In this document: one piece after another, positions 5,336 through 64,000 of the stretch
Position numbering within the stretch: the first letter of the stretch is position 1
Layout of the letters: the number at the start of each line of letters is the position of its first letter
Assembly (NCBI GenBank): GCA_030390025.1
Contig: CM059431.1
Coordinates: forward strand, 94,428,001-94,492,000
Reading direction: 5' to 3'
Origin: Squalus acanthias
Lineage: Eukaryota
Length of the DNA: 64,000 nucleotides
Made by a program: the position numbers and the translations under genes
The notes under the pieces: generated by a model
Told to the model about the DNA's origin: nothing
The model's input: only the letters and a program-made list of their open reading frames with translations
Database searches by the model: none

Positions 5336-5948
5336 TAAGTCACCCATTTCACATCTTTATGGTTTTATTTTCCAAGTGTTAGTCATGTCTACATGCTCTC
5401 TTTCTTCTCTAATTAACTTACTGTCTTCAATGGGCTTAAATTACAAAGGAAATTATATAGACGGAAATAACAACGTGTCACTCTAAAATGCCAAACTTGT
5501 TAATTATACAGCTCTATACGAGGTTGTTGATTGGCGCCAGTGAAAATTCCACTGTCAGACCACCTGTACTGAATGAATCAAACAGGCTCAAGCTGCCTGA
5601 AGTGAGCATCCATAGAGAGATAGGTGGGCTAAGGCTGCAACATTTGCAAACAAGATCCAAGGATTGCAGGGATTGGGCTTTGTAAATATTAAGGGGACTG
5701 AATTTCTTTACCCACTCCCCCTCGCCAGAATGTTAGACAGGAGCACCTGAACTGCACTGCCTGCCCAGGCCAAAGTGCAGCTAATTTTGGTTCACATGGC
5801 TCCGTCACACCTGAAGCATGGACACGTCCCTGCTCCCTCCTCTCTACCCAATCAGGACCTTGTCCAAAACAGGAGGCAGGAATAGCCTGAAGCCCACAGC
5901 TACAGATCTAAATATCGACTTCAAACTAGTCCTGCAATATAATTGCCA

Positions 5949-6247
5949 CATCTCTTCTAGGAATGTCCACCTTGAAGAAGTTCTGCTCTTCTCTCTGACG
6001 GGATTTCCATTTGTCTCTTTTACCTTGATCATCTTCATTGCTTTCTGTTTCCCTTCTCATGTTTGATCAGGTACACTTGCTTAAAAACCTGTTCCATCTC
6101 CAACTTTTTCCAGTTCTGACGAAGGGTCATTGACCTGAATCGTTAACTTTGTTTCTCTCTCTACAGATGCTGCCTGACCTGCTGAGTATTTCCAGCATTT
6201 TCTGTTTTTATTTCAGATTTCCAGCACCCGCAGTATTTTGCTTTTCT
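5949..6247 (+). mobile_element. Penelope-like element 3' end/pLTR with minimal hammerhead motif
   Basis: CTGACGA-AGGGTC/GACCT-GAAT at 6116-6140; flanked by duplication gtcctgcaatataattgYcc; absent in copy C (35010-35035). Confidence 0.75.
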
Positions 6248-6549
6248 GTCCTGCAATATAATTGTCCACTTACCTTTTAGCCTTGTTGCCTGGTCTCATG
6301 ACACTCCCTGATCTGAGGGCTCACTGGCACTTGGTCCCATTAACACTTCTTCAGGTGTCCCTGCATCTGTTGTCCGACTGACCAAAACACAGGGAAATGA
6401 GGCAGGAAGCTCAAGAAGGTCCCTTCCTACCTTAGTTAAATAAGTTAATTGGGCCTGCACCTATTATTAGGCCACATAAGGGGTGGCAGAGACTCGGCAT
6501 AATGGGTCTCTGGCACCGTCTCAACCCACTGAAATTGGCCTTCCTACAA

Positions 6550-46794: not shown

Positions 46795-49569
46795 GGGCTC
46801 GATTTTAATAGCACTGAGGAGGCGGGTTTGGAGACGGGTTGGCAGCGAAAATCGAAAAAAATGGCTTCAGACTGCCAACTCGCCTCCATCCCGCCCACCC
46901 CCACCCCACCCGATTTTCGTGAGTGTCTGTTCAGCCGCTCCCAAACAGCCTGTTAACTGCCTGTCTAATCCTATTTTTATAGTGGTTTCCCATTTTCGTG
47001 CCTCTGGCTCCTGTTTCCCATCTTGTCAGAAACAGGCCAGGTTCAAGGAGACGAGTCGCTGGAGGACATGATTTGTAGTCATTGGTGCAGCACATCAAAA
47101 GCGCTCCTGTAACATGGCTGACATTCAAATGCAACAATTTTGTCGTTGGAGGTTTGGGATAAGATTTTGCAAATCTACTGACCTTGTGACTGTTCAAGCT
47201 GACAGCCATCTGCAGTGTGACCTGATTGGAATAATTTCAGGCCACTTCTAGTGTGTGCTTGAAAGCTACTTGCCTCAAGTGAAATCTATAGCAACGGGAT
47301 GGGAAACATTTACATCCTCTCATCCTGGTCATCAGATACTGAGGAAGAGCAGCCGCGGCAGCACCACAACCAGCCACAACAGCAGCACCAGCACCAGGAG
47401 CGCCAACCTCCTCCTCACCCACCTGATGATGTACAGGACGGAGGGCCTCAGCGCAGGGCTGCACCTCACTGCTGGAGATACCCCCAACATAGGGTTTACA
47501 GGCAGAGGATCAGCTTCCTCAGCATGACTGAGCAGCAGTGCCAAAGGAGGCTGAGACTTTCGAGAGATGTAGTCGCTGACATCTGCGCAATGCTGCACCA
47601 ACACCTGGAGCCCAGAGGAGCATGTGGACACTCCTTACCAGTTGCTGTCAAAGACACCACCGCACTCAACTTATTTGCTTCGGGCTCCTCCAGGGATCAG
47701 CTGCAGACATCAGCGGCATCTCCCAGTCGGCCGCACACACCTGCATCACGCAGGTCACCGATACCCTCTTTGCAAAGGCGCACAATTGCATCCACTTCTC
47801 CATGGATTGCCCAAGTGTGACGGCACATGTGGTTGGCTTTGCCAATATGGCAGGCTTGCCAATGGTGCAGGGTGTCATCGACCCCTATCACAACCCAACA
47901 GTATTTGTCAACCGCAAGGGCTTCCACTCCCTGAACGTCCAGCTGGTGTGTAACCACAGGAAGATCATCATGCACGTTTGCGCAAAGTACCCTGGCAGTT
48001 GCCATGACTCCTTCATCCTGCGCCAGTCTACTGTGCCTCAGCTCTTCCATCTGCCGGATGGCTTCTTGGCGACAAGGGCTATCCCCTGAAAAAGTGGCTT
48101 ATGACACCGATGAGGAGGCCATCAAACGATGCTGAGGAGCGGTACAATTTGAGCCACATATCCACCAGAAGCATCATCGAACAAACCATCGGCTTGCTCA
48201 AAATGCGCTTCCGATGCCTAGTCAGATCTGGAGGAGCCTTGCAGTATGCACCAGCCAGGGTGTCCAGAATCGTCGTGGTCTGCTGTGCCCTGCACAACAT
48301 TGCACAGCAGCACAGTTTAGTGCTGCCGCATGAACAAGTGGCTCAGCACACAGCCTCCTCGGAGGAAGAGGAAGAGGACGAGGAAGAGGATGAGGAAGAG
48401 GATGAGGAAGAGGATGAGGAGGAGGACGGGAAGTGATGCCTTGCGGGGCTGGATGTGGCCAATCCAGCAGCAGGTGACCACATTGCTGGCCGTCAGGCAA
48501 GGGATGCACTCATCCATGCCAGATTTGTGTAAGCTTACGCTTCAACCACAGGTGGCTGGCACATGGAGATGAATATAAGTCCGACATCCTCAAAACCCCA
48601 GGCATCATCTGTCTACTAAAGCGATCAGTGTCACCACCAACATTCTACATGGCATTTGCCCTGAGGCCTCACTCTTGAAATTCCATTTCCCAGAACACAG
48701 AGGCCACACTTTAGATCATTAAACCTTTTTCGACACTGAACCCATGTACGTCTGCACACAGACCTCGAACTCAACTCCTCAGCAATTTGCAGCCAAGCTG
48801 CCTTGGTTTGCTGAGGAGGCCTCCTCCTTCTGTTTCCACGGAAGAGGACCTCCTGACGTCCTCTAACTCCCTCCACAAGAGCATGGAGGGAGCCCTCATT
48901 GAACCTGGACGAAAATGAGAAGTCGCACAACACCAGGTTATAGTCCAACAGTTTTATTTGAAATCACGAGCTTTCGGAGCGCTGCTCTTTCGTCTTGACC
49001 TGACGAAGGAGCAGCGCTCCGAAAGCTCGTGGTTTCAAATAAAACTGTTGGACTATAACCTGGTGTTGTGCGACTTCTCATTTTTGTCCACCTCAGTCCA
49101 ACACCTGCATCTCCGCATCATTGAACCTGGGTGCAGCCTTAGTTTTTGGTGCTGCCATTCCTGCAGCAGCCAGCACCTTTAAGAGAAAAAAGCATTAATT
49201 TTACTCAGCCAATGATTGAAACACATGTGAAATATTTTTCATTTCTTAGTCACATACTACATTGATAGATTAAAAAATCATAAATGTCTTTCTGGAATAA
49301 TATTTCTAGATAAACAGAACCAAGCCATTCCAGTTACATTTTTTGCAAAGGGGACATGGCCCCTTTAAATTTTTACTCCAAAAACGCATCATCAGAGGCG
49401 AGAAACAGACACGCTCCAAGCAATTGCCTGGAAGGACCCGCACACCGGCTGTAACAAGGCCAATCAGGCAAAAATCGGAACTGCGGGCCGGCGGCATCTG
49501 AGAGCAGGTCTGAAAGCTGCCGAGCAGCGGGCCCGCCCACAACCCGCCTCCTCTATACAAATCCAGCCC
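46795..49569 (+). mobile_element. Harbinger with degenerate transposase (47299-48530) and truncated Myb
   Basis: TIR GGGCTCGATTT/AAATCCAGCCC; TSD aac/aat; [43 protein letters not shown] on -. Confidence 0.9.
48909..49117 (+). mobile_element. Palindromic Penelope-like insertion with hammerhead ribozyme core
   Basis: ~88-bp inverted arms 48907-48994/49002-49089; CTGACGA-A-GGAGC/GCTCC-GAAA at 49000-49024; 13-bp TSD tcattgaacctgg. Confidence 0.85.
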
Positions 49570-49988
49570 AATGTTTCAGTTCGATGCCCTTTCATCAGAA
49601 CACAATTTGCCCTTAACAAACCAGTGCTGGCTCTCCTTTACCTGGTCCATGCTTGCCCAAGTGGCTGTTAACTTTCTCCTGGATTATTGTTTCTAAAAGC
49701 TTCCCCACCAACGATGTTAAACTATAATTGCCAGGTTTATCCTCCGCCCCCTTTTTGAACAAGGGTGCAACATTTGCAATCCTCCTGTCTTCTGGCACCA
49801 GCCCTGTATCTAAGGAGGATTGGAAGATTGTGGCCAGCACCTCCGCAATTTCTACCCTTACTTCCCTCAGCAACCGAGGATGCATCCCAACCAGACTGGG
49901 TGACTTAAAGTACTGCCAGCCTTTCCAGTTCCTCCTCTGTATCTATTTTTATCTCATCCAGTATCCTGGCAACCTCATAGTTTACTGC

Positions 49989-51272
49989 TGCAGGATTCAC
50001 AAAATTCCGGGACCTCCTACTTAATGGACATGTGTCTAGAATTTAAAAGGGGGCTGTGTTGGACCTCTTGGAGGAGAAATGTGGACAGAAATATCTCACT
50101 ATCAGGCGCCTTTGGACTAAACTAGGGCCTATTGGATTGAGTTTGGACATTTTAAATTATATGCCGGGTCTGCACAGGAAAATGGGAATCCTTATAGGGC
50201 TGCTAACCCACCTGGGAGGCAGGCCCCCAGGGAGACATTAGCAGTCTAACAAAAGCCCACTTACCAGGGACCCAGAGACATAAATATTTTAATGGTTCTT
50301 AAAACGGCTATCCAGAAAAACCCTGGCATCAGCAAAACACACAATGGACAGTATCAAGACCTGATTACATTCTAACAGCACCATTCAAAAACCCCATCAA
50401 CACCTTTGGGAATCTTGTATCATGCTAATGCCCAATCAGCCCACCAACATTCTCACAAAGGGATCACATCAGAGTTGATCAGCCTGCCAAAATCGCACAA
50501 AAGGGAGTCATCTAGAATCAATTGTGCACCCGAGTTTTGGCGCAAAAGTTTAAGCAGCCTCTCGGGTATAACTGGGGGCTTGCTAGTAGCCAACGAGTAC
50601 CTGAACAGACGGGCTGAAGGGAGAGAGTGCCGGCAGCAGCAGCAGCAGCAGCAGCACACCGGAGCAGAAGAAACGTACCCGAGAACACGCTGGAAAGGCA
50701 CTTGGACTCTGGGCTTTTTGACTCTGGCTTTGAAACATCTAACTTGCCACACGAGGTTACAGCAACGCAACAAGAAAACCTAACAAGAAGCCTCGGAGTC
50801 ACTGAAAGATCAACCATCATCCAGCGCTGACTCTAGGAAAAACTTGTTTCCCATCAAATCGTCGACCAGTGCTAATACCGAAGACACCGCAAACAGCCAA
50901 GGAGTCCACAAGATTGAGGAGAGGGAAAGCAGTGTGCAACTGGTCTAAACTGTGGAGAAATCCTTTGCTGAGCATAGTCCCTGTAATTTCAGAGCCTAAC
51001 TTAGTTAGTGTAGTGGTGGGAGGTGGTTTTATTTTGTTTTGTTTTTTTTCCTCTCACTGCATAACCTCTGTACCTGTTGCGCAGGAGGTTTTGTTTATAG
51101 TTAATTCATGTGGTGTGCCATTTCTAAATGAAATATTTGTTCTTGCACCAAACAATTGTCTGCCGACATCTATCACATCCCCCAAATAATTCCAAGCTCC
51201 AGAACCAGGGAGTGGGACGATTCGAACCGTCAAGGACATTGTAAAAGGCCGACAAACCCACCACCCCCTACA
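49989..51272 (+). repeat. 5' LTR (family 1, ~1284 bp)
   Basis: TGCAGG...CCTACA followed by PBS; CAG tract at 50633-50655; polyA-like aatgaa at 51127. Confidence 0.88.
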
Positions 51273-51275
51273 TAA

Positions 51276-51293
51276 TGGCGAGCCAGGTAGGAG
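51276..51293 (+). promoter_or_regulatory. Primer-binding site, tRNA-Arg(ACG)-like
   Basis: TGGCGAGCCAGGTAGGAG matches 16/18 to the complement of the vertebrate tRNA-Arg 3' end CTCCTGGCTGGCTCGCCA (from memory), 3 nt after LTR CA. Confidence 0.8.
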
Positions 51294-52736
51294 CTTGGTA
51301 CAAAGGATGTGAGGATGTAGACTCGGTTCTGGTGGAAAGAACAAAAATGGAGGAAAGAATCTCCGAATATGTATTTAAGAAAGTAAATATTACCAAAAAG
51401 TGGGTCATAAGCCTGTTACGGGCTGAGCGTCCGGTGGACGCAGCTGCTAAGTGGACCGAGAGCAAGGACCATAAAAGGCCAATAGAGAAGGCTATTTGGT
51501 TGGTCTGCTACCAAAGACAGATCCAGTTGCTGGATAGGAAGGTCAAGAAATTGGTAGCAGAGCTCCGGGAATCCGAAGAGCGCTCAGCCGTAAGGGCTAT
51601 GGCAGGGGAGAAAATGTTTGAGGAATTAACTAAACAAAAGCATATCAGATTACAGCTAGAAGAGACCCACAGGAATAAGCAGGACTATTTCCAATGCCAA
51701 GTAACAGAGGCAAAGGGGAATGAGCTAGCGCTGCGGGGGGAAAATGCCTGCCTAACAAAAGTAATAAGAGAACAGGAGGAGAGGATACGGGATGCGCAGG
51801 CAGCCTATAAAGTAGCCAGTAGCAAGGGCTTTGGGGTGGAGGATCACGGGCCCTGTGAGGCCAAGATAAAAGGTTTAACCCAGGCCCTATCTAATGCTAA
51901 GGGGATGGTATGCCTGATAAGCCCAAGCGCTCCTAAGGGAGACATGCAGGAGCAAGGGGGAGTAGAGGGGGATAGAGTGGCAGAAAGGGACGTCCAACCA
52001 CCACCTGTAGCCCTACTGAGGTTAGTCCTGGCAGTATAGAGAGAGCACGGCACCGAGGAAATACAAGGGGTGTCAGGACCGGGGCCGATGTGCCCAATCC
52101 GACAACAAAAGTATGGTGCCAGCAACGCTTGTAAGGCTTCCAAAATTTGCAGATCCCCAAAACCTAAGGAAATAGGACTTTGGAACTACCTCAGTGATAA
52201 AAATGCATTTGGGCCTAACCTAAGAGACTGTAAGACCAAAAACCAAGTTTTGGCATTTTAAAAGCATGTCTGGGCCTGTGAAGGGAGAAAAGGCTGTGAA
52301 GGAAGTTGGGCTCGACCTCTGCAAACGCAGTTTTGGGTATTGCAGTTAAATTGCATTTCTTGGGGAATCGGGATGACCTCACTCAAGCCCCAGCAAGCAT
52401 TAACATTTTGACAATAGACCCTAGGAGGAGACAGCCCCACCCAAAACAACAGGTCCCATCAAACCGATTACAGAACCCATTAAAGACATGCATAAAGCAA
52501 ATATTCGATCGCAGTCCTAGACCCAGTCAAGAAACCCAACACATGAGGACAATTCAAACTCCGATTAAACAACAGATCGACAGGATGGAGCTATTTTGAA
52601 ACCACTTCACACATTTACAAAACCAGTTAACACGCTAGTAAAGTCGTTACTGTTAACGAGGTCTTACAATGACCGGGATTTGATTTTGTGTTGATAAGGC
52701 CACTTCAATTCAGTATAATTGAAGGCCCATCAAGCA

Positions 52737-53671
52737 TGCGGATGACACTAAATTGGGAGGCAGTGTGATCAATGAGGAGGATGCTAGGAGGCTACAGAGT
52801 GACTTGGACAGGTTGGGTGAATGGGCAAATGTATGGCAGATGAAGTACAATGTGGATAAATGTGAGGTTATCCACTTTGGTGGTAAAAATAGAGAGGCGG
52901 ACTATTACCTGAATGGTGGCAGATTAGGGAAAGGGGAGGTGCAATGAGACCTGGGCGTCATGGTACATCAGTCACTGAAGGTGGGAATGCAAGTGCAGCA
53001 GGCAGTCAAGAAAGCAAACGGAATGATGGCCTTCATAGTAAGGGGATTTGAGTACAGGAGTAGGGAGGTGATGCTGCAGTTGTACAGGGCCTTGGTGAGG
53101 CCACACCTGGAGAATTGTGCGCAGTTTTGGTCTCCTAACTTAAGGAAGGACATTCTTGCTATTGAGGGAGTGCAGCGAAGGTTCACTAGATTGATTCCTG
53201 GGATGGCCGGACTGACATATCAAGAAAGATTGCGTCAACTGAACTTGTATCCTCTGGAGTTCAGAAGAATGAGGGGGGATCTTATAGAGACATTTAAAAT
53301 CCTGACTGGTTTAGACAAATTAGATGCAGGCAGAATGTTCCCAATGTTAGGGAAAACTAGAACCAGGGGTCACAGTCTAAGGATTAAGGGGAAGCCATTT
53401 AAGACTGAGCTGAGGAGGAACTTCTTCACCCAGAGAGTGGTGAATCTATGGAATTCTCTTCCACAGAAGGTTGTTGAGGCCAGTTCGCTAAATATATTCA
53501 AAAGGGAGTTAGATATAACACTCACAACTAGGGGGATCAAGGGGTATGGCGAGAAAGCAGGAATGGGATACTGAGGTAGCATGTTCAGCCATGAACGCAT
53601 TGAATGGCGGTGCAGGCTCGAAGGACCGAATGGTCTACTCCTGTACCTATTTTCTATGTTTCTATGTTTCT
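52737..53671 (+). mobile_element. 5'-truncated CR1 (RT C-terminus plus tail)
   Basis: ADDTKLGG..LEFRRMRGDLIE; (TTTCTATG)n; TSD aagca. Confidence 0.93.
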
Positions 53672-54251
53672 AAGCAGTTCAGGAGTAACAACAGTTCAAG
53701 TTCAACAGAAGGCAGTTCTGCAGTTTTGGAGTTCAATTTGAAAAGCCTGTTTTTCAGCAGAAGTCAGTGTTGGAATTACAGAGTTCAGGAGAAGCAAGTT
53801 GGCCAGTTAAAGAAGACAGTTCAGTAAGAAGGGAGTTCTCCAGTTCTCCAGTCAAACAGTTCAAGTTCAACAAGCAGGCAGAAGGCAGTTTCCACAGTTC
53901 TGCAAGAAGGCAGTTCCACAACTCGGAAGAAGACAGTTTAAACAGAAAGCAGTTCAACAAAGAAAGCCAACAGCTCCAGAAGTAGGCCGACACGCAAGAA
54001 GAGACCAGAGCGACTGCCTCAGTGACCATCGGACACCTTGCGGCAACAAGGGCCTGACAAAACCTTTTACTCAAAGGACTCTAAACCCTAACTCTCAACT
54101 GTCAAGGATTCATTTGGTGAACATTATCCCTGGTTCTCCAGAGTCCAACCTAGCTAGTGAAGTGGGATTGGGAGGGGTGAAGTATTCTTCTAATGTTATT
54201 TCCCTCGCGTGTACCGAAGTGTTCCCCACCTTTAGAGTGTTAAGAGTGTTT

Positions 54252-55144
54252 GGGGTAAAAATTCACTTGGTTGCGCCACCCGTTAGCGCCTTAAGAGGGC
54301 GCTAATGGGGCGCAAAGCCGCTAACGCCCGGGCGCAGCGATGTTTGCGCCGCTCGAGAACTTAACTTGAGATTGTGCGGCGGCGCTAAAACTTACCGCTG
54401 CGACCACCTGCGCGCGCAGATTGTGACGTCATTCCATGGTGCAACGCCCTTGGGGCGCCCCGTAGCGGAAATTGAGTGGCGCCCCCTGCCTTACCGCCTG
54501 GCGCTTCCAACGACCAGAAGACTGGAACGCTATCAATCGCTGTGGGGCTGGGGGGGGCGCTATTTAAAGGGGGCCTCTTCCTGTCTTTTATTGTTGGTGA
54601 CATTTTTGAACTACGCATTCTGAGAGAGAGAGGGAGAGACTTCTGGAGCGATTCAACGTTATGTGAAGGAGTTTTGGGTACTGAGCAGCACTTTGCAGGT
54701 TCATTTTGATTTGCCATTCCTTGTATCGATTTAGCAGAGACCGTGGGAGCTGCACTCTGAGCTCTTTGCCTGGTGCTCTCCATTGTTCTTTCCAGCACAT
54801 TTGATGTGCAAGTCTCTCCAGGCCGAGATTCAAGGCAGCAATGAACAGGATGTGGATGGAAAGCAAGATTAACCATCCCCTTTAAGAACTGGCCCGTGCC
54901 ATTGTGTGTGTGTTCCATTGCTGACTGACATTACATGAGCTTCGCCAGCGCTCCGAGTTAGCGCCTCACTGCACGGCCTTTGCGCCTTAAGACAGGTGTG
55001 CAGCGCCTGATTTAGCGCTCCACTCACCTCCCGGGGCGGTAAAAGTGAAGTTTCCAGTCAGTGCCGATAATTAGCGCCAGGCGCTAATATTTGCGTCCGG
55101 ACGATATTTGCGCCCCAAATGGGGCGCGACCTAATTTCTACCCC
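54252..55144 (-). mobile_element. 893-bp Harbinger MITE, fifth copy
   Basis: TIRs; TSD ttt; empty site at ~29655 in the other LTR. Confidence 0.93.
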
Positions 55145-56267
55145 TTTGTGTTGTGTTTTACTTTCTTGAATAAAGATCGAAATTCTTTCATCAAAACCTG
55201 TTGTCTACTTCACCTTTGTTCACGACCCCCAAATAAGTTCAAGGTCTAGAACCAGGGACGTGGGAGCGATTCGAACCGCTCACTGAGTCAGAGGTGAAGC
55301 TGACCCTACCACACCACCCCCTACACGCTGGTCAGGGACAAGGGGCCCTGGAGAACCAATTTGTAATTCCCCATGGAACCCAGCAGCTCCGGGAAATGGT
55401 AGCTCATTTAGAAAAGTTAACCCCTCAAGGGGACCCCTCGTCCATTTTATGGACAGAGAGCAGGCAGCCGGTATAAACGGCTGCGATGAGGCCGAACAGG
55501 CTAAAATGCTGCTTTTCTCCTTGGATCGCAAGGTATACCAGGCCCTCTCTGCAGATAGCAAGAGGGAGCAGAGCACATATGCTGCGATCCAAGAAGAGGT
55601 GTTAGAGGTTCTGGGCCTAAATGACGGAAGTCCATTTTCCCGGGTCGAGAAGACCCTTTCAACAGGCAGGTGAAACCCCACAGGCTTTCGCAGACAGGCT
55701 GTGGCCCGTCTACGAGAGAGCATGTGGAGGAGATCTCGACCTGGAACCAACAGCTTGCTGGCTTCGCAGCCTAGTGGCTAACTGCCTGCCATGAGTAAAG
55801 GCTAAAGCCGAGCTGTGGTTCGACCCCAGAGACCCCACCGCTACCGAGGAGTCAGTGGTTAGACAGTTAACCCTGGCTTACCGGAATGGCAGAGGGGCCC
55901 CACAAAAAGGAAAGGTCCACGAGATCCGGCCCAGTAATTCCAGTAGAGAATGGCACCAGGAAGAGGGGAGCCCTTCCGACTCAAAGAGTACGTGCTATGG
56001 GTGCGGAAAAAGTGGGCACTGGCGGAAGAATTGCCGAAATCCTTGGAAAGATAGGGCAGAAAAGGAATCCTCACCCTTAAAGGATTCCCCTGCCACAAAA
56101 TGTTTAACAGCCCCGGCTCAAAGAGCTCAAAGAGCCGGGCCTGGGGCACACAATCCCTCTGGCAATTTCGATGAGATTGTGGCCGCGCTCCGAACTATGA
56201 TAATGGGCTCAGGGAAGGTAGCTGTAGCCACCGGCGCAACCTCACCTGCCCCACCTAATCCTGATCT

Positions 56268-57735
56268 ATGACTAGAGCCAGCGCAGCTGTATACCTGTGC
56301 CCTTTACACTATGATGAGTGGAAATGGCCTTGCGTGAAGATAGAGGTGGAGAGGGTTAAAGGGGCCTATCTGCTAGACACTGGTGCTTCCAGCACCATCG
56401 TCTATGCGGATAACCCAACCACCTCACCTCTGTCGAATGGAGTCCCGTATTCCTTGGTAGGATTCACAGGTAACGAGCAGGCTGGCTCGTTCTCCATCCC
56501 ACTATCAATTGACTTAGGAGCACTGCACACCAAGTGGAAGTGTGTCCTAATGAAGTGGGAGAAAGAGGGAACAGGGATCCTAGGTGCAGATTTCATGATT
56601 GGCCACAAGGTCCTAGTGGACCTCAGAAATCATTGCCTATGGGGAGCGGTATGCATGGGGGAAGAGAAAGAAGTTGTAGTGATCCCGGGGATACAAGGCA
56701 AAGGGACCCTATACACGGTAAAGCCAAAAGAAGGCTATGACCTCAAGTTACTGGTAAGCAGTACCCCCAGAGAGTATCAGGCGTTGGTGCGGGCAAATCT
56801 CGGTGCATTCGCCACCCACAAGCATGATTGTGGGAGGGTAACAGGGGTCGAGGTTAGCGTAGATGGGGATCCCATGGACAGGCCCCAAAAACAGTAGAAG
56901 TTCCCTAGGGAGGCGGAGGCAGACCTGGAGATTGCCCTGGGTTCCCTAGTCACACAGGGAGTGTTGAGGCCGATAGCCACCCACGTGAACTCACCACTTG
57001 GGCCGGTTAGGAAACCGGACAATTCATGGAGAGCCACTGTGGACTACCGGGTCCTCAACCGCAATATCCCAGCCTGTGCGCCCACGGTCGCTACAGTCGC
57101 CGACCTAATTGGAAGCGTACCAGCATCCGCGTGCACCTTGACGGTGCTGGATATCTCAAACGGTTTTTGGTCCATCCCGTTAAAGAGAGGGGACCAGTAC
57201 AAATTTGCTTTTACCTTCAAGGACCAGCAATACACGTGGAACTGCCTTCCCCAGGGGTTTCATAACAGCCGCAGTATATTCCACCAATGCATGGCCAATT
57301 GTCTAAAACACTTCAGCAAGCCCCAGCAGTTGGTACAGTATGTGGATGACCTGCTCCTATTCACCGACAAGGGTGAGGAGCACGGCCCACTGCTAGCTGA
57401 ACTGCTGGAACTGCTAAAGGAAGTGGGTTTTAAAGTCAACCCAAAGAAGGCGCAGATCGGCCAGCCAGAAGTAAAATTCCTGGGGCTGACTGTGTGCGCA
57501 GGCGAGAGGGCAATAGATAAGGCCAGGAGAGAAGCAATGCAGGAATTGCCAGCCCCTCGTTCTGTTACTGGAGTAAGACCTATCCTAGGGCTTACTGGTT
57601 ACTGCAGGGATTTCATTGAGGACTACGCAGCCACAGCAGCCCCCCTACTCCGACTCCTTCACAAAGGAGTGGAGTGGGACTGGGATAAAAGCAGCGGGGA
57701 GGCGTTCACTCAATTAAAAAAAAATCTGCAAACCA
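56268..57735 (+). pseudogene. pol: pol: aspartic protease plus reverse transcriptase (stop at 56895; RNase H and integrase core absent)
   Basis: YLLDTGAS, ILGADF; NSPLGPVRKPD..VDYRVLN, LDISNGFWSIP, LPQGFHNS, QYVDDLL, KFLG. Confidence 0.93.
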
Positions 57736-58673
57736 CGCACAAAGGGCAGCCGGGAGGGGTGAGCTGTCCTCAGGACAAGGGCCCCCAGCCGGCAGCCTCC
57801 GACTGTGGGGGAACCGCAGGGGTAGTGGGGGCAGACTCACAGGCCGTACAAGTAGGGGCCGTGAGCTGCATTGCTGGAGGGGCTGTCCCACCTATAGTTT
57901 GGGACTCGTACGAGCCCCAGGTACTCGGAGGCCTTAGAAGGACCTTCCGCACCCCGCAGCCCAGGTTCCCATGGTCCCCTACGCTATGATACAGACTGCT
58001 CCGTCCTGAGAGGGACTCCAGGAAGCAAAGACTGTGGAAGGCAGGAGACCGCTTACGGGCAAAAGGTCACAGGCCTGCAGTGCCCGACTGTAGGGAACCG
58101 GCAGGGGAGGCAGCAGCCCCACCAGTCGTAGCCTCTGAAGGGAACGAGCCCACAACAGAGGTAACAGCCAGGCACTGAACCCGATTATGGGAAGCCTGTG
58201 GGGGAAGTAGCAGCCCCACCGGACATAGGTTCCGACTATGGGGAACCAACAGGGGAGATAGTAGTCCCACTAGCTTTAGAGTTAGGCACGGTTCACTGCA
58301 CAGAGGGAAGGACCATCCCGCCTATGGTATGGGACTCGGAAAAACCCCCGAGAACCGACCCCGTGAGAAGGAGTAGCCGAGTCTCACGGCCTAGGACACC
58401 ATGGTCCCTGGTACAAATGCTGCCCAGATACCGCAGAAGGCACAGGACATCCAGGATGTAACCTGGCCACCCGGAGACGGTTGGCGCTGTATATAGCTTT
58501 GGTTTAAGTTAGTATCTAAGTTAAAAGGGTTTTGAGTTTTAAGTTGGTAGTTTGGTTTGGATTTTAGAGCTTTCAAGTTTAAATTTGAATAAGATTACCT
58601 TGTAGCCAAGCCAGAGAACATTTTCTCAAAGGCAAGGCTGTCGGTTTGTGACCCCTCCAGGAAAAACCACAAG

Positions 58674-59451
58674 ATGATGGAAGGAATCCTGTTCCTACTT
58701 GCCCTACTGGGGACAAGCACCGGCAAAAGAGGTGACGTCGAGGAGTCCCGGATCTTTGGGTGCTCGGGTGGAAGAGCGCCCATCATTACTACCGGGGATG
58801 GTACTCGAGGCGCGAGTGAGGTCACCATCTATCACCACCAGGGAAGGTGGCCAGGATGGCTGGGGTCCAATTCAACCAAATACCCCAGCCAGGCCGGGTT
58901 TACTTACGGGGAGGTGTCCCTCCCATGCCCAAGGGTACAAATTGTTGCTTCCCGGGTTAGGGTGACGGAAGGAAAGAGGGTGTGTTTGAGTTGTAAAGGA
59001 CGGATTCCCCTGGGTAGGTGGTGGTGGCTCAGAAAGCTGAGCAAGGACGCGGGGGACCAGGAAGTGGCGTGGGTACGACTTAACAATGATACCATTACGA
59101 GTGCCCCAGACAGAGTGGAGAATATAGGGATCATTCAGGGAGGAGCACACATTCGTTTCACAGCGGTCCCACCTTATGTCATAAAGTGGGAGCACGCTAT
59201 GACAGGTACTGACCTCTCCGGGTGCCGGAGCCGGGGTGCACATGTAATACTGTGCCCCCAGCACTTGAATGCCTATGCAAGATCACAATGCAGGTTTAAA
59301 GCTGCTGGCCCACGGCCTATCAACTGCACTACGGAGGTGATGGCCCAAGACCACGTTCCTCCACAAGTGGCATACGTAGAGGGTGCGACATATTGTGTCA
59401 CCAACAGTGCGCCCCAATATCAACACGGATCGTACATCTGGTGCATATGCT
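58674..59451 (+). pseudogene. env: env-like glycoprotein, truncated by the inversion
   Basis: Splice acceptor ccctccag at 58653-58660; signal peptide MMEGILFLLALLG; NxS/T sites; Ig-like and Cys-rich segments. Confidence 0.7.
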
Positions 59452-61848
59452 ACAGCGTATGTGCTCTACCCCCTCTTGCTATCTGCAGAGAGGGCCTGGT
59501 ATACCTTGCGATCCAAGGAGAAAAGCAGCAGTTTAGCCTGTTCGGCCTCATCGCAGCCGTTTAAACCGGCTGCCTGCTCTCTGTCCATAAAATGGACCGA
59601 GGGGTCCCCTTGAGGGGTTAACTTTTCTAAATGAGCTCCCATTTCCCGGAGCTGCTGGGTTCCATGGGGAATTACAAATTGGCTCTCCAGGGCCCCTTAT
59701 CCCTGACCACCGTTGCTGGCACCATACTTTTGTTGTCGGATCGGGTACATCGGCCCCGGTCCTGACACCCCTTGTATTTCCTCGGTGCCGTGCTCTCTCT
59801 ATACTGCCAGGACTATCCTCGGTAGGGCTACAGGTGGTGGTTGGACGTCTCTTTCTGCCACTCTATCCCCCTCTACTCCCCCTTGCTCCTGCATGTCTCC
59901 CTTAGGAGCGCTTGGGCTTATCAGGCATACCATCCCCTTAGCATTAGATAGGGCCTGGGTTAAACCTTTTATCTTGGCCTCACAGGGCCCGTGATCCTCC
60001 ACCCCGAAGCCCTTGCTATTGGCTACTTTATAGGCTGCCTGCGCATCCCGTATCCTCTCCTCCTGTTCTCTTATTACTTTTGTTAGGCAGGCATTTCCCC
60101 CCGCAGCGCTAGCTCATTCCCCTTTGCCTCCGTTACTTGGCATTGGAAATAGTCCTGCTTATTCCTGTGGGTCTCTTCTAGCTGTAATCTGATATGCTTT
60201 TGTTTAGTTAATTCCTCAAACATTTTCTCCCCTGCCATAGCCCTTACGGCTGAGCGCTCTTCGGATTCCCAGAGCTCTGCTACCAATTTCTTGACCTTCC
60301 TATCCAGCAACTGGATCTGTCTTTGGTAGCAGACCAACCAAATAGCCTTCTCTATTGGCCTTTTATGGTCCTTGCTCTCGGTCCACTTAGCAGCTGCGTC
60401 CACCGGACGCTCAGCCCGTAACAGGCTTATGACCCACTTTTTGGTAATATTTACTTTCTTAAATACATATTCGGAGATTCTTTCCTCCATTTTTGTTCTT
60501 TCCACCAGAACCGAGTCTACATCCTCACATCCTTTGTACCAAGCTCCTACCTGGCTCGCCATTATGTAGGGGGTGGTGGGTTTGTCGGCCTTTTACAATG
60601 GCCTTGACGGTTCGAATCGTCCCACTCCCTGGTTCTGGAGCTTGGAATTATTTGGGGGATGTGATAGATGTCGGCAGACAATTGTTTGGTGCAAGAACAA
60701 ATATTTTATTTAGAAATGGCACACCACATGAATTAACTATAAACAAAACCTCCTACGCAACAGGTACAGAGGTTATGCAGTGAGAGGAAAAAAAACAAAA
60801 CAAAATAAAACCACCTCCCACCACTACACTAACTAAGTTAGGCTCTGAAATTACAGGGACTATGCTCACCAAAGGATTTTTCCACAGTTTAGACCAGTTA
60901 CACACTGCTTTCCCTCTCCTCAATCTTGTGGACTCCTTGGCTGTTTGCGGTGTCTTCGGTATTAGCACTGGTCGACGATTTGATGGGAAACAAGTTTTTC
61001 CTAGAGTCAGCGCTGGATGATGGTTGATCTTTCAGTGACTCCGAGGCTTCTTGTTAGGTTTTCTTGTTGCGTTGCTGTAACCTCGTGTGGCAAGTTAGAT
61101 GTTTCAAAGCCAGAGTCAAAAAGCCCAGAGTCCAAGTGCCTTTCCAGCGTGTTCTCGGGTACGTTTCTTCTGCTCCGGTGTGTTGCTGCTGCTGCTGCTG
61201 CTGCCGGCACTCTCTCCCTTCAGCCCGTCTGTTCAGGTACTCTTTAGCTACTAGCAAGCCCCCAGTTATACCCGAGAGGCTGCTTAAACTTTTGCGCCAA
61301 AACTCGGGGGCACAATTGATTTTAGATGACTCCCTTTTGTGCGATTTTGGCAGGCTGATCAACTCTGATGTGATCCCTTTGTGAGAATGTTGGTGGGCTG
61401 ATTGAGCATTAGCATGATACAAGATTCCCAAAGGTGTTGATGGGGTTTTTGAATGGTGCTGTTAGAATGTAATCAGGTCTTGATACTGTCCATTGTGTGT
61501 TTTGCTGATGCCAGGGTTTTTCTGGATAGCCGTTTTAAGAACCATTAAAATATGTATGTCTCTGGGTCCCTGGTAAGTGGGCTTTTGTTAGACTGCTAAT
61601 GTCTCCCTGGGGGCCTGCCTCCCAGGTGGGTTAGCAGCCCTATAAGGATTCCCATTTTCCTGTGCAGACCCGGTATATAATTTAAAATGTCCAAACTCAA
61701 TCCAATAGGCCCTAGTTTAGTCCAAAGGCGCCTGATAGTGAGATATTTCTGTCCACATTTCTCCTCCAAGAGATCCAACACAGCCCCCTTTTAAATTGCA
61801 GACACATGTCCATTAAGTAGGAGGTCCCGGAATTTTGTGAATCCTGCA
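59452..61848 (-). repeat. Inverted copy of LTR (60565-61848), PBS and 5' gag
   Basis: Reverse complement of 49989-52129 plus 55330-55585; same ORFs appear mirrored (e.g. 51275+ vs 60562-). Confidence 0.97.
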
Positions 61849-62265
61849 CTGCAGCTTTGGGAAAGTCCTCTTCCTTGGTAAACACCAAATTACTAATTTA
61901 ATATTTTAATACCTCAGCCATGCCTTCTGCCTCCACATCAATGCATCCTATTCAGCCCCACCGCTCCTCTGACAACCCATTTACTGTTTATTGTACCTAT
62001 AGCAGACTGTTGGATTCCCTTTTATGTTAGCTGCCAATCTATTCTCGTACTGTCTGTTTGCCCCTCTTATTTCCTTTTTCACTTCTCCTCTGTACTTTTT
62101 ATATTCAGCCTGATTCTCCCTTGTGTTATCTTGCTGACATCTGTCATACGTCCCCATTTTCTGCTTCATCCTACTCTTTAACTCCTTCGTCAACCAGGGA
62201 GCTCTGACTTTGGTTGCCCACCCTTTCCCACTTATGGGAATGTATTTAGACTGTACCCGAACCAT

Positions 62266-62402
62266 ACAATAGCAAAATACTGCGGGTGCTGGAAATCTGA
62301 AATAACAAGAGAAAATGCTGGAAACACTCAGCAGGCCAGGCAGCATCGAGGAGAGAGAAACAGAGTTAACGTTTCTGGTCGAGGACCCTTCGTCAGAACT
62401 GG
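62266..62402 (-). mobile_element. Penelope-like pLTR with intact hammerhead core
   Basis: Minus-strand CTGACGAAGGGTCCTCGACCAGAAACGTTAAC (62365-62396). Confidence 0.8.
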
Positions 62403-62427
62403 ACAAGGTTAAAGAGAGATTTTTAAG

Positions 62428-62852
62428 CATAAGAACATAAGGAATAGGAGCAGGAGTAGGCCATTCGGTCCTTCGAGCCTGATCTGCCATTCAATGAGAT
62501 CATGGCTGATCTTCTGCCTTAACTCCATTCACCGGCCCTATCGCCATATCCCTTGATGCCCTTACTAGTCAGAAATCTATCGACTTCTATTTTGAATATA
62601 CGCAATGACTGAGCCTCCACAGCCCTCTGGGGTAGAGAATTCCAAAGATTCATCACCCTCTGTGTGAAGAAATTTCTTCTCATCTCAGTCCTGAATGGCC
62701 TACCCTTGATCTTGAGGCTGTGGCCCCTGGTTCTAGAATCCCCAGCCAAGGGAAACATTCTCCCAGCATCCATCCTATCAAGCCCTGTAATAATTTTGTA
62801 TGCTTCAATGAGATCCCCTCTTATTCTTCTGAATTCAAGAGAATACAGGCAA
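62428..62852 (-). mobile_element. CR1 3' end
   Basis: LYSLEFRRIRGDLIEAYKI; (TTCTTATG) tail. Confidence 0.9.
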
Positions 62853-64000
62853 GTGCAAGGACAGGGATAGGGAGGAGGGGAGGAAAGAAGCCCTGTGGAA
62901 TGCACATCCTGTGCCATGTGAGAAGTCCTGGATGCTTCTCATGGCCTGGACGACCACGCGTACGGGAAGTGTCGCCAACTGCAGCAACTCGAGCTCCGGG
63001 TTTCGAGGCTGAAAGTTACGTAGATAGCACGTTTTTGGAGGTGGTCACCTCGCAGCTTAAGAGTATGCAGACAGAGAGGGAATGGGTGACCGACAGACAG
63101 AAGAGGAGGACCAGGCAGGTAGTGCAGGATTCCCCTGAGTGCATCTCGCTTGCTAACCAGTATTCAGTTCTGGATACTGGTGAGGGCGATGGTTCCTCTG
63201 GGGAGTGCAGCCAGAGCCAAGTCCATGGCACCATGGGTGGCTCAGCTGCACAGATGGGGAGGAAGAAGAGCAATAGTGGTAGGGGATTCAATAGTTAGGA
63301 GAATAGACAGGCGTTTCTGCGGCCGCAGACGTGACTCCAGGATGGTATGTTGCCTTCCTGGTGCCAGGGTCAAGGATGTCACTGAACGGCTGCAGGACAT
63401 TCTGAGGGGGGAGGGTGAACAGCCAGAGGTCGTGATCCACATCGGTACCAACCACATAGGTAGAGAGGGCTGAGATCCTGCAGGCAGATTTTTGGGAGCT
63501 AGGAAACAGATTCAAAAGCAGGACCTCAAAGGTAGTAATCTCCGGATTACTCCCAGTGCCATGTGCTAGTGAGTACAGGAATAGGAGGATAGAACAGATG
63601 AATGCGTGGCTGGAGAGATGGTGCAGGAGGGAGGGTTTTAGATTCCTGAGGCATTGGGACCGTTTCTGGGGGAGGTGGGACCTGTACAAGCCGGACAGGT
63701 TGCACCTCAACAGGAACCAATATCCTCGCGGCAGGGTTTGCTAGTGCTGTTGGGGAGGGTTTAAACTAGCTTGGCAGGGGGATGGGAACCTGAGAGTGGA
63801 TTCAAAAGGGAGAGAAGCAAAGCTGGAAATGGAAGGCAGAAAATTAGTAAGCGAGTTTAGAAGGCAGAGGAAACAAGGGCTAGGAAATAGACAACAAGGG
63901 AGTTTGGCAGTGCTAAATGGTATATACTTCAACGCAAGGAATCTAGGGAATAAAGCAAATGAGCTGAAGGCATGTGGGATTATGATATTATAGCTATTAC
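62853..64000 (+). mobile_element. CR1 5' region: ORF1 (SGNH esterase) and start of ORF2
   Basis: IVVGDSIVR..CCLPGARVKD..VVIHIGTN; PDRLHLN; YFNARNL. Confidence 0.9.

Follow-up and report, generated by a model that had tools for sequence, protein, structure and literature searches.

The window analysed here is the whole stretch of 64,000 nucleotides taken from the Squalus acanthias assembly GCA_030390025.1 (contig CM059431.1, positions 94,428,001 to 94,492,000 of the forward strand). Positions 49989-61848 of this window are a single insertion of a retrovirus-like element in which the structures of the 5′ end, i.e. the long terminal repeat (LTR), the primer-binding site (PBS) and the start of gag, stand in inverted orientation at both tips. 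Very probably this insertion was made in one step, by integrase acting upon one linear aberrant DNA that bore two U3 (unique 3′) ends. The integrase signature is drawn from the exact U3 terminus and the genuine target-site duplication (TSD) of the family's type that are found on both sides; together with the 4-bp TSDs usual in the family and the near identity of the two arms, these observations uphold the proposal, made in an initial annotation of this DNA, that a molecule with two U3 attachment ends had been integrated. The best explanation is that the event took place a single time, in the germ line, and that the copy has since decayed in place; the locus is accordingly best read as the one-off fossil of a copying accident, and not as a new kind of mobile element.

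Read rightwards from its left tip, the element presents a 1284-bp LTR, a tRNA-Arg primer site, and gag, protease (PR) and reverse transcriptase (RT) regions, continuing up to about 59444; after 8-9 filler bases there follows the reverse complement of the element's own first 2396 bp (LTR, PBS and gag start). Positions 49989-52136 pair in inverse orientation with 61848-59702 at 98.6% identity, and 55325-55584 with 59713-59453 at 96.2%. The left arm, which the initial annotation treated as contiguous, is split by a nested insert of 3196 bp that had been overlooked; with this removed, both arms are 2396 bp long and differ across 2395 aligned positions by 35 substitutions (1.46%) and two 1-bp indels, so that the earlier description of inverted arms of about 2.4 kb with few mismatches holds; the structure is real and in good preservation. 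The termini are TGCAGG at the start and CCTGCA at the end, agreeing with the TG and CA noted previously. Each strand of the window contains the LTR's first 16 nt a single time, and 48000-63500 holds no direct repeat of at least 40 bp; there is, accordingly, no direct 3′ LTR. The polypurine tract (PPT)-like sequence and direct 3′ LTR that are found in the relatives designated C2 and C8 are both absent from the inverted element.

The limits of the LTR (TG...CA) are taken from other genomic copies, which share them. When the LTR's first 712 bp served as query against the source genome (3.7 Gb), 51 matches were obtained (best 40 of 49 candidates scored), and eight other LTR copies were aligned, seven of which span positions 1-1284 and one positions 1-1280. 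Seven of the eight are solo LTRs, flanked by a perfect 4-bp TSD in six cases and by one with 3 of 4 bases matching in the seventh, whilst the eighth is a 3′ LTR preceded by the PPT-like tract aaaggcgggac; the same order, a PPT-like tract and then a direct 3′ LTR, is seen in the canonical relatives C2 and C8. In both arms the PBS begins 3 nt past the LTR and consists of TGG followed by 15 nt that match tRNA-Arg(ACG) genes exactly. These tRNA genes themselves form long tandem arrays (C50:29700-63052, C462:36354-71788 and C8:36015447-37481962) in which the 15-nt 3′ end returns every 1235 bp or so, and two of the units were confirmed by ARAGORN. Within the LTR the U3 stretch 50281-50970 is variable in length: the 5′ LTR of the C2 copy is without 50283-50969, its 3′ LTR carries about 500 bp extra at 50281, the C8 LTR is broken near 50327, and several further copies have about 170 extra bp near position 385.

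The 4-mer ctgc borders the element on both sides, and the left and right flanks are halves of the same host repeat, which is abundant (the two flanks gave 6883 and 4148 candidates, respectively, of which the best 40 were scored in each case). Paralogs on C18 and C7 hold both halves adjacent to one another, reading GTTTAC-CAT-AGCTTTGG, and align gap-free to the flanks when these are joined by one ctgc, two copies leaving 4 bases extra. Because these paralogs read through the site with a single 4-mer, the ctgc duplication is genuine, and the initial statement that the host repeat passes straight through the insertion is likewise borne out. The label then given to this repeat, CR1, found no confirmation: the 16 flank frames gave no Pfam match apart from a Harbinger-type transposase and a Myb domain further upstream, and no homologous protein was found for a 169-amino-acid flank frame. 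At the right edge, loose contig ends at 61853 in one short-read set (X5) resemble paralogs of the host repeat (GTTTACCAT) and are unlike the left flank; reads of the empty site are not present among the listed contigs.

Such precision at both borders bears upon two other histories of the locus. A pair of ordinary, oppositely oriented insertions, of which the second struck precisely the edge of the first and both later lost their 3′ parts by deletion, would be in keeping with a locus where nested insertions are common (the insert in the left arm and the repeat inside it). The same 4 bp would nevertheless have to be reused with the outer ctgc pair kept and the host repeat left contiguous, and both arms would need to share one source and one date of arrival, which makes this a very unlikely course of events. 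Rearrangement of a normal provirus by the host, by a fold-back or template-switch inverted duplication in replication or break repair, appears equally hard to credit. Fold-back inversions with short filler do arise in host repair, and bases are shared between the target, CTGCAG, and the start of the LTR, TGCAG; however, a return to the flank guided by this microhomology would yield ...CCTGCAGCTTT, without extra bases, whereas the inverted arm stops exactly at the first base of the LTR, a second, complete ctgc coming directly after it. Breakpoints would, moreover, be needed precisely at both LTR edges. An inversion between two proviruses on one chromosome was also considered and rejected, as its flanks would be neither contiguous nor share a TSD.

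Comparison of the arms with other copies of the family points to their common origin. Among the 17 differences in the LTR part, set against the eight other LTRs, 10 are changes confined to the left arm and 4 to the right, both states occurring elsewhere for the remaining 3; of the 18 substitutions in the internal part, judged against copies C2 and C4, the left arm alone accounts for 7 and the right arm alone for 10, the last being mixed. Overall, therefore, 31 of 35 substitutions (17 left, 14 right) are private to one arm, with 4 mixed, and those 31 arose after both arms had been made from one sequence. The two LTR arms are also mutual nearest relatives, being 1.3% apart as against at least 2.2% to other LTRs. 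To judge from these alignments, the arms were identical or near-identical at their origin, and their present distance (0.0148) would correspond to roughly 3-7 million years if neutral rates of 1-2.5e-9 per site per year, which are themselves uncertain, are assumed.

The insert in the left arm is younger than the main insertion. It starts TGTAAGG and finishes CCCCCTACA, resembling the LTR ends of the element that it entered, and is flanked by CGCT at 52126-52129 and 55326-55329; the right arm and the C2 and C4 copies join the 52129 region straight to the 55330 region without it. At one base both CGCT copies depart from what is found in the right arm, C2 and C4, so this change is older than the insert and the insert is younger than the provirus. 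A copy on C12 shows it to be a solo LTR of about 2.26 kb from a related family, there lacking the repeat of about 940 bp that the window's copy contains. This repeat has defined ends, is 99% identical to 35 listed copies (best 40 of 8336 candidates scored) and evidently represents a non-autonomous element whose activity is very recent. Between its last 85 bp or so and positions 62425-62509 of the host flank there is a resemblance in inverted orientation.

At the internal joint, relatives of the left copy run on beyond 59443/59444 in conserved sequence that has no counterpart in the window; in the closest relative, C8, the 3′ LTR starts about 1 kb past the equivalent of this break. Homology to the reverse complement of gag begins at 59453, and the intervening 8-9 bases match neither side. 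Short-read contigs cross the joint at 59452/59453 in two independent read sets, which come from different samples and different studies; they span 59202-59498 in one (X1, 6 differences) and 59247-59498 in the other (X5, 2 differences). Among the contigs listed for runs of two other organisms (X19 and X22) none crosses it; one from X19 starts at 59453 and continues as ordinary gag. The initial annotation had named an assembly fold-back as a finding that would overturn its reading, and palindromic chimeras do occur as a long-read artefact. Against such an artefact, or one due to a chimeric read, stand the spanning contigs from both studies, the difference of the arms at 35 sites and by the 3.2-kb insert, flanks that are not mirrored and are contiguous in the paralogs, and an assembly without N anywhere in the window; it is not supported, and we regard it as extremely unlikely.

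A genome-wide search for the joint, which had been advocated earlier, decides likewise between the two outcomes then envisaged, namely a rare aberrant complementary DNA (cDNA) and a propagating family of non-autonomous proviruses with terminal inverted repeats (TIRs). With a 300-bp query spanning the joint, a match along the full length was obtained at the window only (best 40 of 1272 candidates scored), and no other inverted LTR pair was present among the 51 matches to the first 712 bp of the LTR. The rare aberrant cDNA is thus the part of that proposal which stands. The TG..CA ends, the 4-bp TSD and the lack of an integrase of its own would all suit a family of this kind, moved repeatedly by integrase in the manner of non-autonomous transposons, but retroviral-type integrases are not known to excise integrated DNA and, given the single occurrence of the joint among the candidates scored, such a family has next to no likelihood.

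For the origin of the aberrant DNA we tentatively favour copy-back in reverse transcription, during plus-strand synthesis, whilst giving it somewhat short of an even chance. In such a process the plus strand, begun at the U3 boundary, would reach approximately 59444 and switch there onto another plus strand, either its own 5′ part or that of a second molecule, at the equivalent of 55584, from which point the switched strand would copy its template back to that template's 5′ end. Because the 5′ end of a plus strand is the U3 boundary, a second precise U3 end would result, and one strand switch would account for the asymmetric truncations. Both breakpoints of the joint lie about 6 nt upstream of a purine tract (9/9) on the plus strand, at 55591-55599 in the window and, in C8, past the equivalent of 59444; this pattern, noticed post hoc and to be set against a base rate of 7.3% per site, hints weakly at plus-strand stops or at a plus-strand origin.

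Those tracts would also be compatible with a different origin, in which host end joining linked, tail-to-tail, two separate cDNAs that derived from one source element and were incomplete or broken, either ahead of integration or once each had contributed its U3 end to one concerted integration: as possible plus-strand stops they could leave duplex only to their left. A joint that is non-homologous and contains 8-9 filler bases is what end joining typically produces, an env-less and integrase-less family probably retrotransposes within cells, where several cDNAs can coexist, and identical arms are compatible with two cDNAs from a single master copy. We nonetheless consider this origin rather unlikely, as it requires two molecules, two truncations and one intasome assembled on the ends of different molecules, no precedent in vivo was found in the literature searched, and no feature of the sequence prefers it to copy-back. 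The sequence alone does not distinguish copy-back, as postulated by the initial annotation, from tail-to-tail joining; integration in trans, which that annotation also proposed, is plausible.

Several considerations weigh against the account given above. The 4 arm differences that are not private could be older than the insertion event; the uniqueness of the joint is a statement about the best 40 candidates scored; and the junctions between LTR and host are not among the listed read contigs, large-scale linkage resting on the assembly. As regards copy-back itself, the sequence cannot tell which polymerase or ligase formed the internal joint, and the filler bases suit host end joining as well as switching by reverse transcriptase. 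A simple snap-back would begin copying at the turn, not 3.9 kb upstream, and turning a copy-back strand into a complete duplex, free at either end, requires extra steps.

The coding regions place the element with the retrovirus-like LTR elements and also bear upon its possible dependence on a relative. The matches to tRNA-Arg(ACG), zf-CCHC, gag-asp_proteas and RVT_1 sustain the earlier identification of PBS, gag, PR and RT, and the nearest solved structures to the RT are the enzymes of foamy viruses and of murine leukaemia virus (MLV) and xenotropic MLV-related virus (XMRV). In the C2 copy gag is an uninterrupted frame of 479 amino acids that runs into the 55330 region; its N-terminal part matches no Pfam family, and leads in the Atlas are to retrotransposon Gag-like clusters with scores of at most 0.87. 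No match to the integrase core (rve) was obtained in any tested frame of the window or of the C2 copy. At 57738 the window lacks about 374 bp of this best relative (C2:57870001-57880000), which hold matches to an RNase H-like domain and to the integrase C-terminal SH3 domain, and in C2 these lie in one frame (5895-6518 of that interval), the RNase H-like match directly adjoining the integrase-type SH3. The whole subfamily looks like an internal-deletion derivative of a far more abundant related family and, as neither the window nor C2 yielded an integrase core, it is plausible that the integrase was supplied in trans by a relative.

The frame 58593-59444 had been labelled as part of env, a label for which neither Pfam, the homologue search nor the Atlas provides support, env being neither shown nor excluded. 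No relevant Pfam match (E, the expect value, up to 5) was obtained for the frame 58593-59564 or for plus-strand frames of at least 35 amino acids in 57.6-59.2 kb, and for 58593-59444 no homologue was found among longer proteins, the Atlas leads being weak (below 0.9). From about 58.9 kb on, this frame is common to a very abundant related element family, as measured by 1272 candidates for the query 59303-59444. Within it, the 34 bp at 58893-58926 are skipped by the contigs of both read sets and the C2 copy aligns there with overlap; these bases seem to be a short duplication in the window that other copies or alleles lack.

Table 1. Features of the insertion and its borders, in window coordinates.
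Feature	Position	Strand	Basis or remark
Target-site duplication ctgc, left copy	49985..49988	.	Comparison of flanks with paralogs
Left LTR, 1284 bp, TG...CA, U3 end at host junction	49989..51272	+	Other genomic copies
PBS, TGG + 15 nt exactly complementary to the tRNA-Arg(ACG) 3′ end	51276..51293	+	
gag start, coiled-coil-like N-terminal part; closes first piece of left arm	51294..52129	+	No Pfam family
Nested insertion, later solo LTR of related family	52130..55325	+	Absent in right arm, C2 and C4
Very young interspersed repeat of about 940 bp within the nested insertion	52737..53675	+	99% identity to 35 listed copies
Final piece of left arm (gag)	55330..55584	+	Arm alignment
Remaining gag, CCHC zinc knuckle at about 55990-56037	55585..56271	+	Pfam zf-CCHC, E 5e-4
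Aspartic protease frame	56265..56897	+	gag-asp_proteas, E 1.3e-4; C2 copy also matches RVP
Reverse transcriptase	56898..57989	+	RVT_1, E 5.5e-34
Open frame without recognised family (earlier labelled as part of env)	58593..59444	+	Truncated at 59443/59444
Filler of 8-9 bases at internal junction, unlike both partners	59445..59452	.	
Right arm, internal part: gag reverse complement from 55584 equivalent back to PBS, without the nested insertion	59453..60543	-	
Right-arm PBS	60544..60561	-	Pattern match at C7:94488544-94488558
Right LTR, inverted, U3 end at host junction	60565..61848	-	
Target-site duplication ctgc, right copy	61849..61852	.	Comparison of flanks with paralogs

Upstream of the insertion, 47263-49090 holds the remains of a PIF/Harbinger-type DNA transposon, with DDE_Tnp_4 frames at 47580-48436 (plus strand), a Myb/SANT frame at 48631-48963 (minus strand) and an 89-bp inverted repeat (48906-48994 / 49002-49090).

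As a natural record, the locus indicates that a molecule bearing U3 ends at both tips can be placed in a chromosome of the germ line by a retroviral-type integrase, and that reverse transcription, or the repair of its products, can yield long inverted molecules that are still fit for integration. Assembled genomes may be the best place in which to count forms with inverted LTRs, whose frequency would quantify this failure mode of reverse transcription; for annotation, it follows that LTR finders demanding direct LTRs will mis-call inverted copies. The inverted 2.4-kb LTR-gag repeat, with its convergent promoters, is a plausible source of double-stranded RNA directed against its own family. A wider proposition, which we think improbable, is that insertions with two U3 ends form a recurrent and undescribed class of LTR by-products across eukaryotes, showing intasomes assembled in vivo on identical ends, and that this locus may silence its own family; were it true, convergent LTR promoters and the inverted repeat could give rise to hairpin or double-stranded RNA and hence to a heritable silencer resembling Mu killer of maize.

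Ordinary proviruses of the same family (C2:5787xxxx, C4:17894xxxx) and its solo LTRs share with the inverted element the 1284-bp LTR, the tRNA-Arg PBS, gag-PR-RT and the 4-bp TSD. Those proviruses end in a direct 3′ LTR with a PPT-like tract before it; the copy described here has an inverted 5′ LTR, PBS and gag start instead. With its LTR, PBS, gag-PR-RT and TSD it is to be classed as a non-autonomous element like those of endogenous retroviruses, from which it departs in showing neither a direct LTR pair with PPT nor a match to the integrase core. Ginger DNA transposons have inverted ends, TG..CA termini, a 4-bp TSD and a gypsy-type integrase; in contrast, no integrase was found here, and the element, of which there is one copy, descends from an ordinary LTR family. 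DIRS elements also have inverted ends, as the part of the literature consulted records (PMC7192593), but the Pfam matches for frames of the window include no tyrosine recombinase, and the TSD present here is absent in DIRS.

Closer to the proposed origin are the template-switching complexes of plant LTR retrotransposons, aberrant cDNAs that were integrated as one piece (Sabot and Schulman 2007, PMC1950507). They too are recognised by flanking TSDs and near-identical outer LTRs; they differ in combining two internal regions with three directly oriented LTRs, and inversion goes unmentioned in that paper (PMC1950507). Internal inversions make up a class of about 1-2% among the defective proviruses of HIV-1 (human immunodeficiency virus type 1; PMC9278108) and HTLV-1c (human T-cell leukaemia virus type 1c; PMC13427564), according to the portions of these reports consulted. 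As here, a reverse-complement viral segment lies inside an integrated copy, whereas the accounts that those portions give contain no inverted LTR at a host junction (PMC9278108, PMC13427564). The HTLV-1c study employed proviral amplicons with amplification primers in the LTRs (PMC13427564), and sequencing of this kind would presumably miss copies that carry an inverted 5′ LTR in place of the 3′ LTR.

Autointegration generates, through integrase, rearranged retroviral DNA that may include an inverted segment; the products described in the excerpt available are circles without free ends, unlike the inverted element (PMC3148978). By reasoning, moreover, it would invert the 3′ LTR via its U5 (unique 5′) end, and not a 5′ LTR-PBS-gag segment ending at host DNA; it was rejected as an origin on these grounds, its products being circular and the LTR end next to the inverted segment being the wrong one. 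An inverted-LTR insertion with TSD was not found in the literature searched, which excluded the closest experimental work on aberrant integration.

With regard to possible function, Mu killer of maize is an inverted transposon duplication that silences its family (MuDR) via a hairpin RNA. The element described here resembles it in that the 5′ part of a mobile element has been naturally duplicated in inverse orientation, an arrangement from which a long hairpin transcript is possible in principle, and differs from it in having originated by integration and not by host rearrangement.

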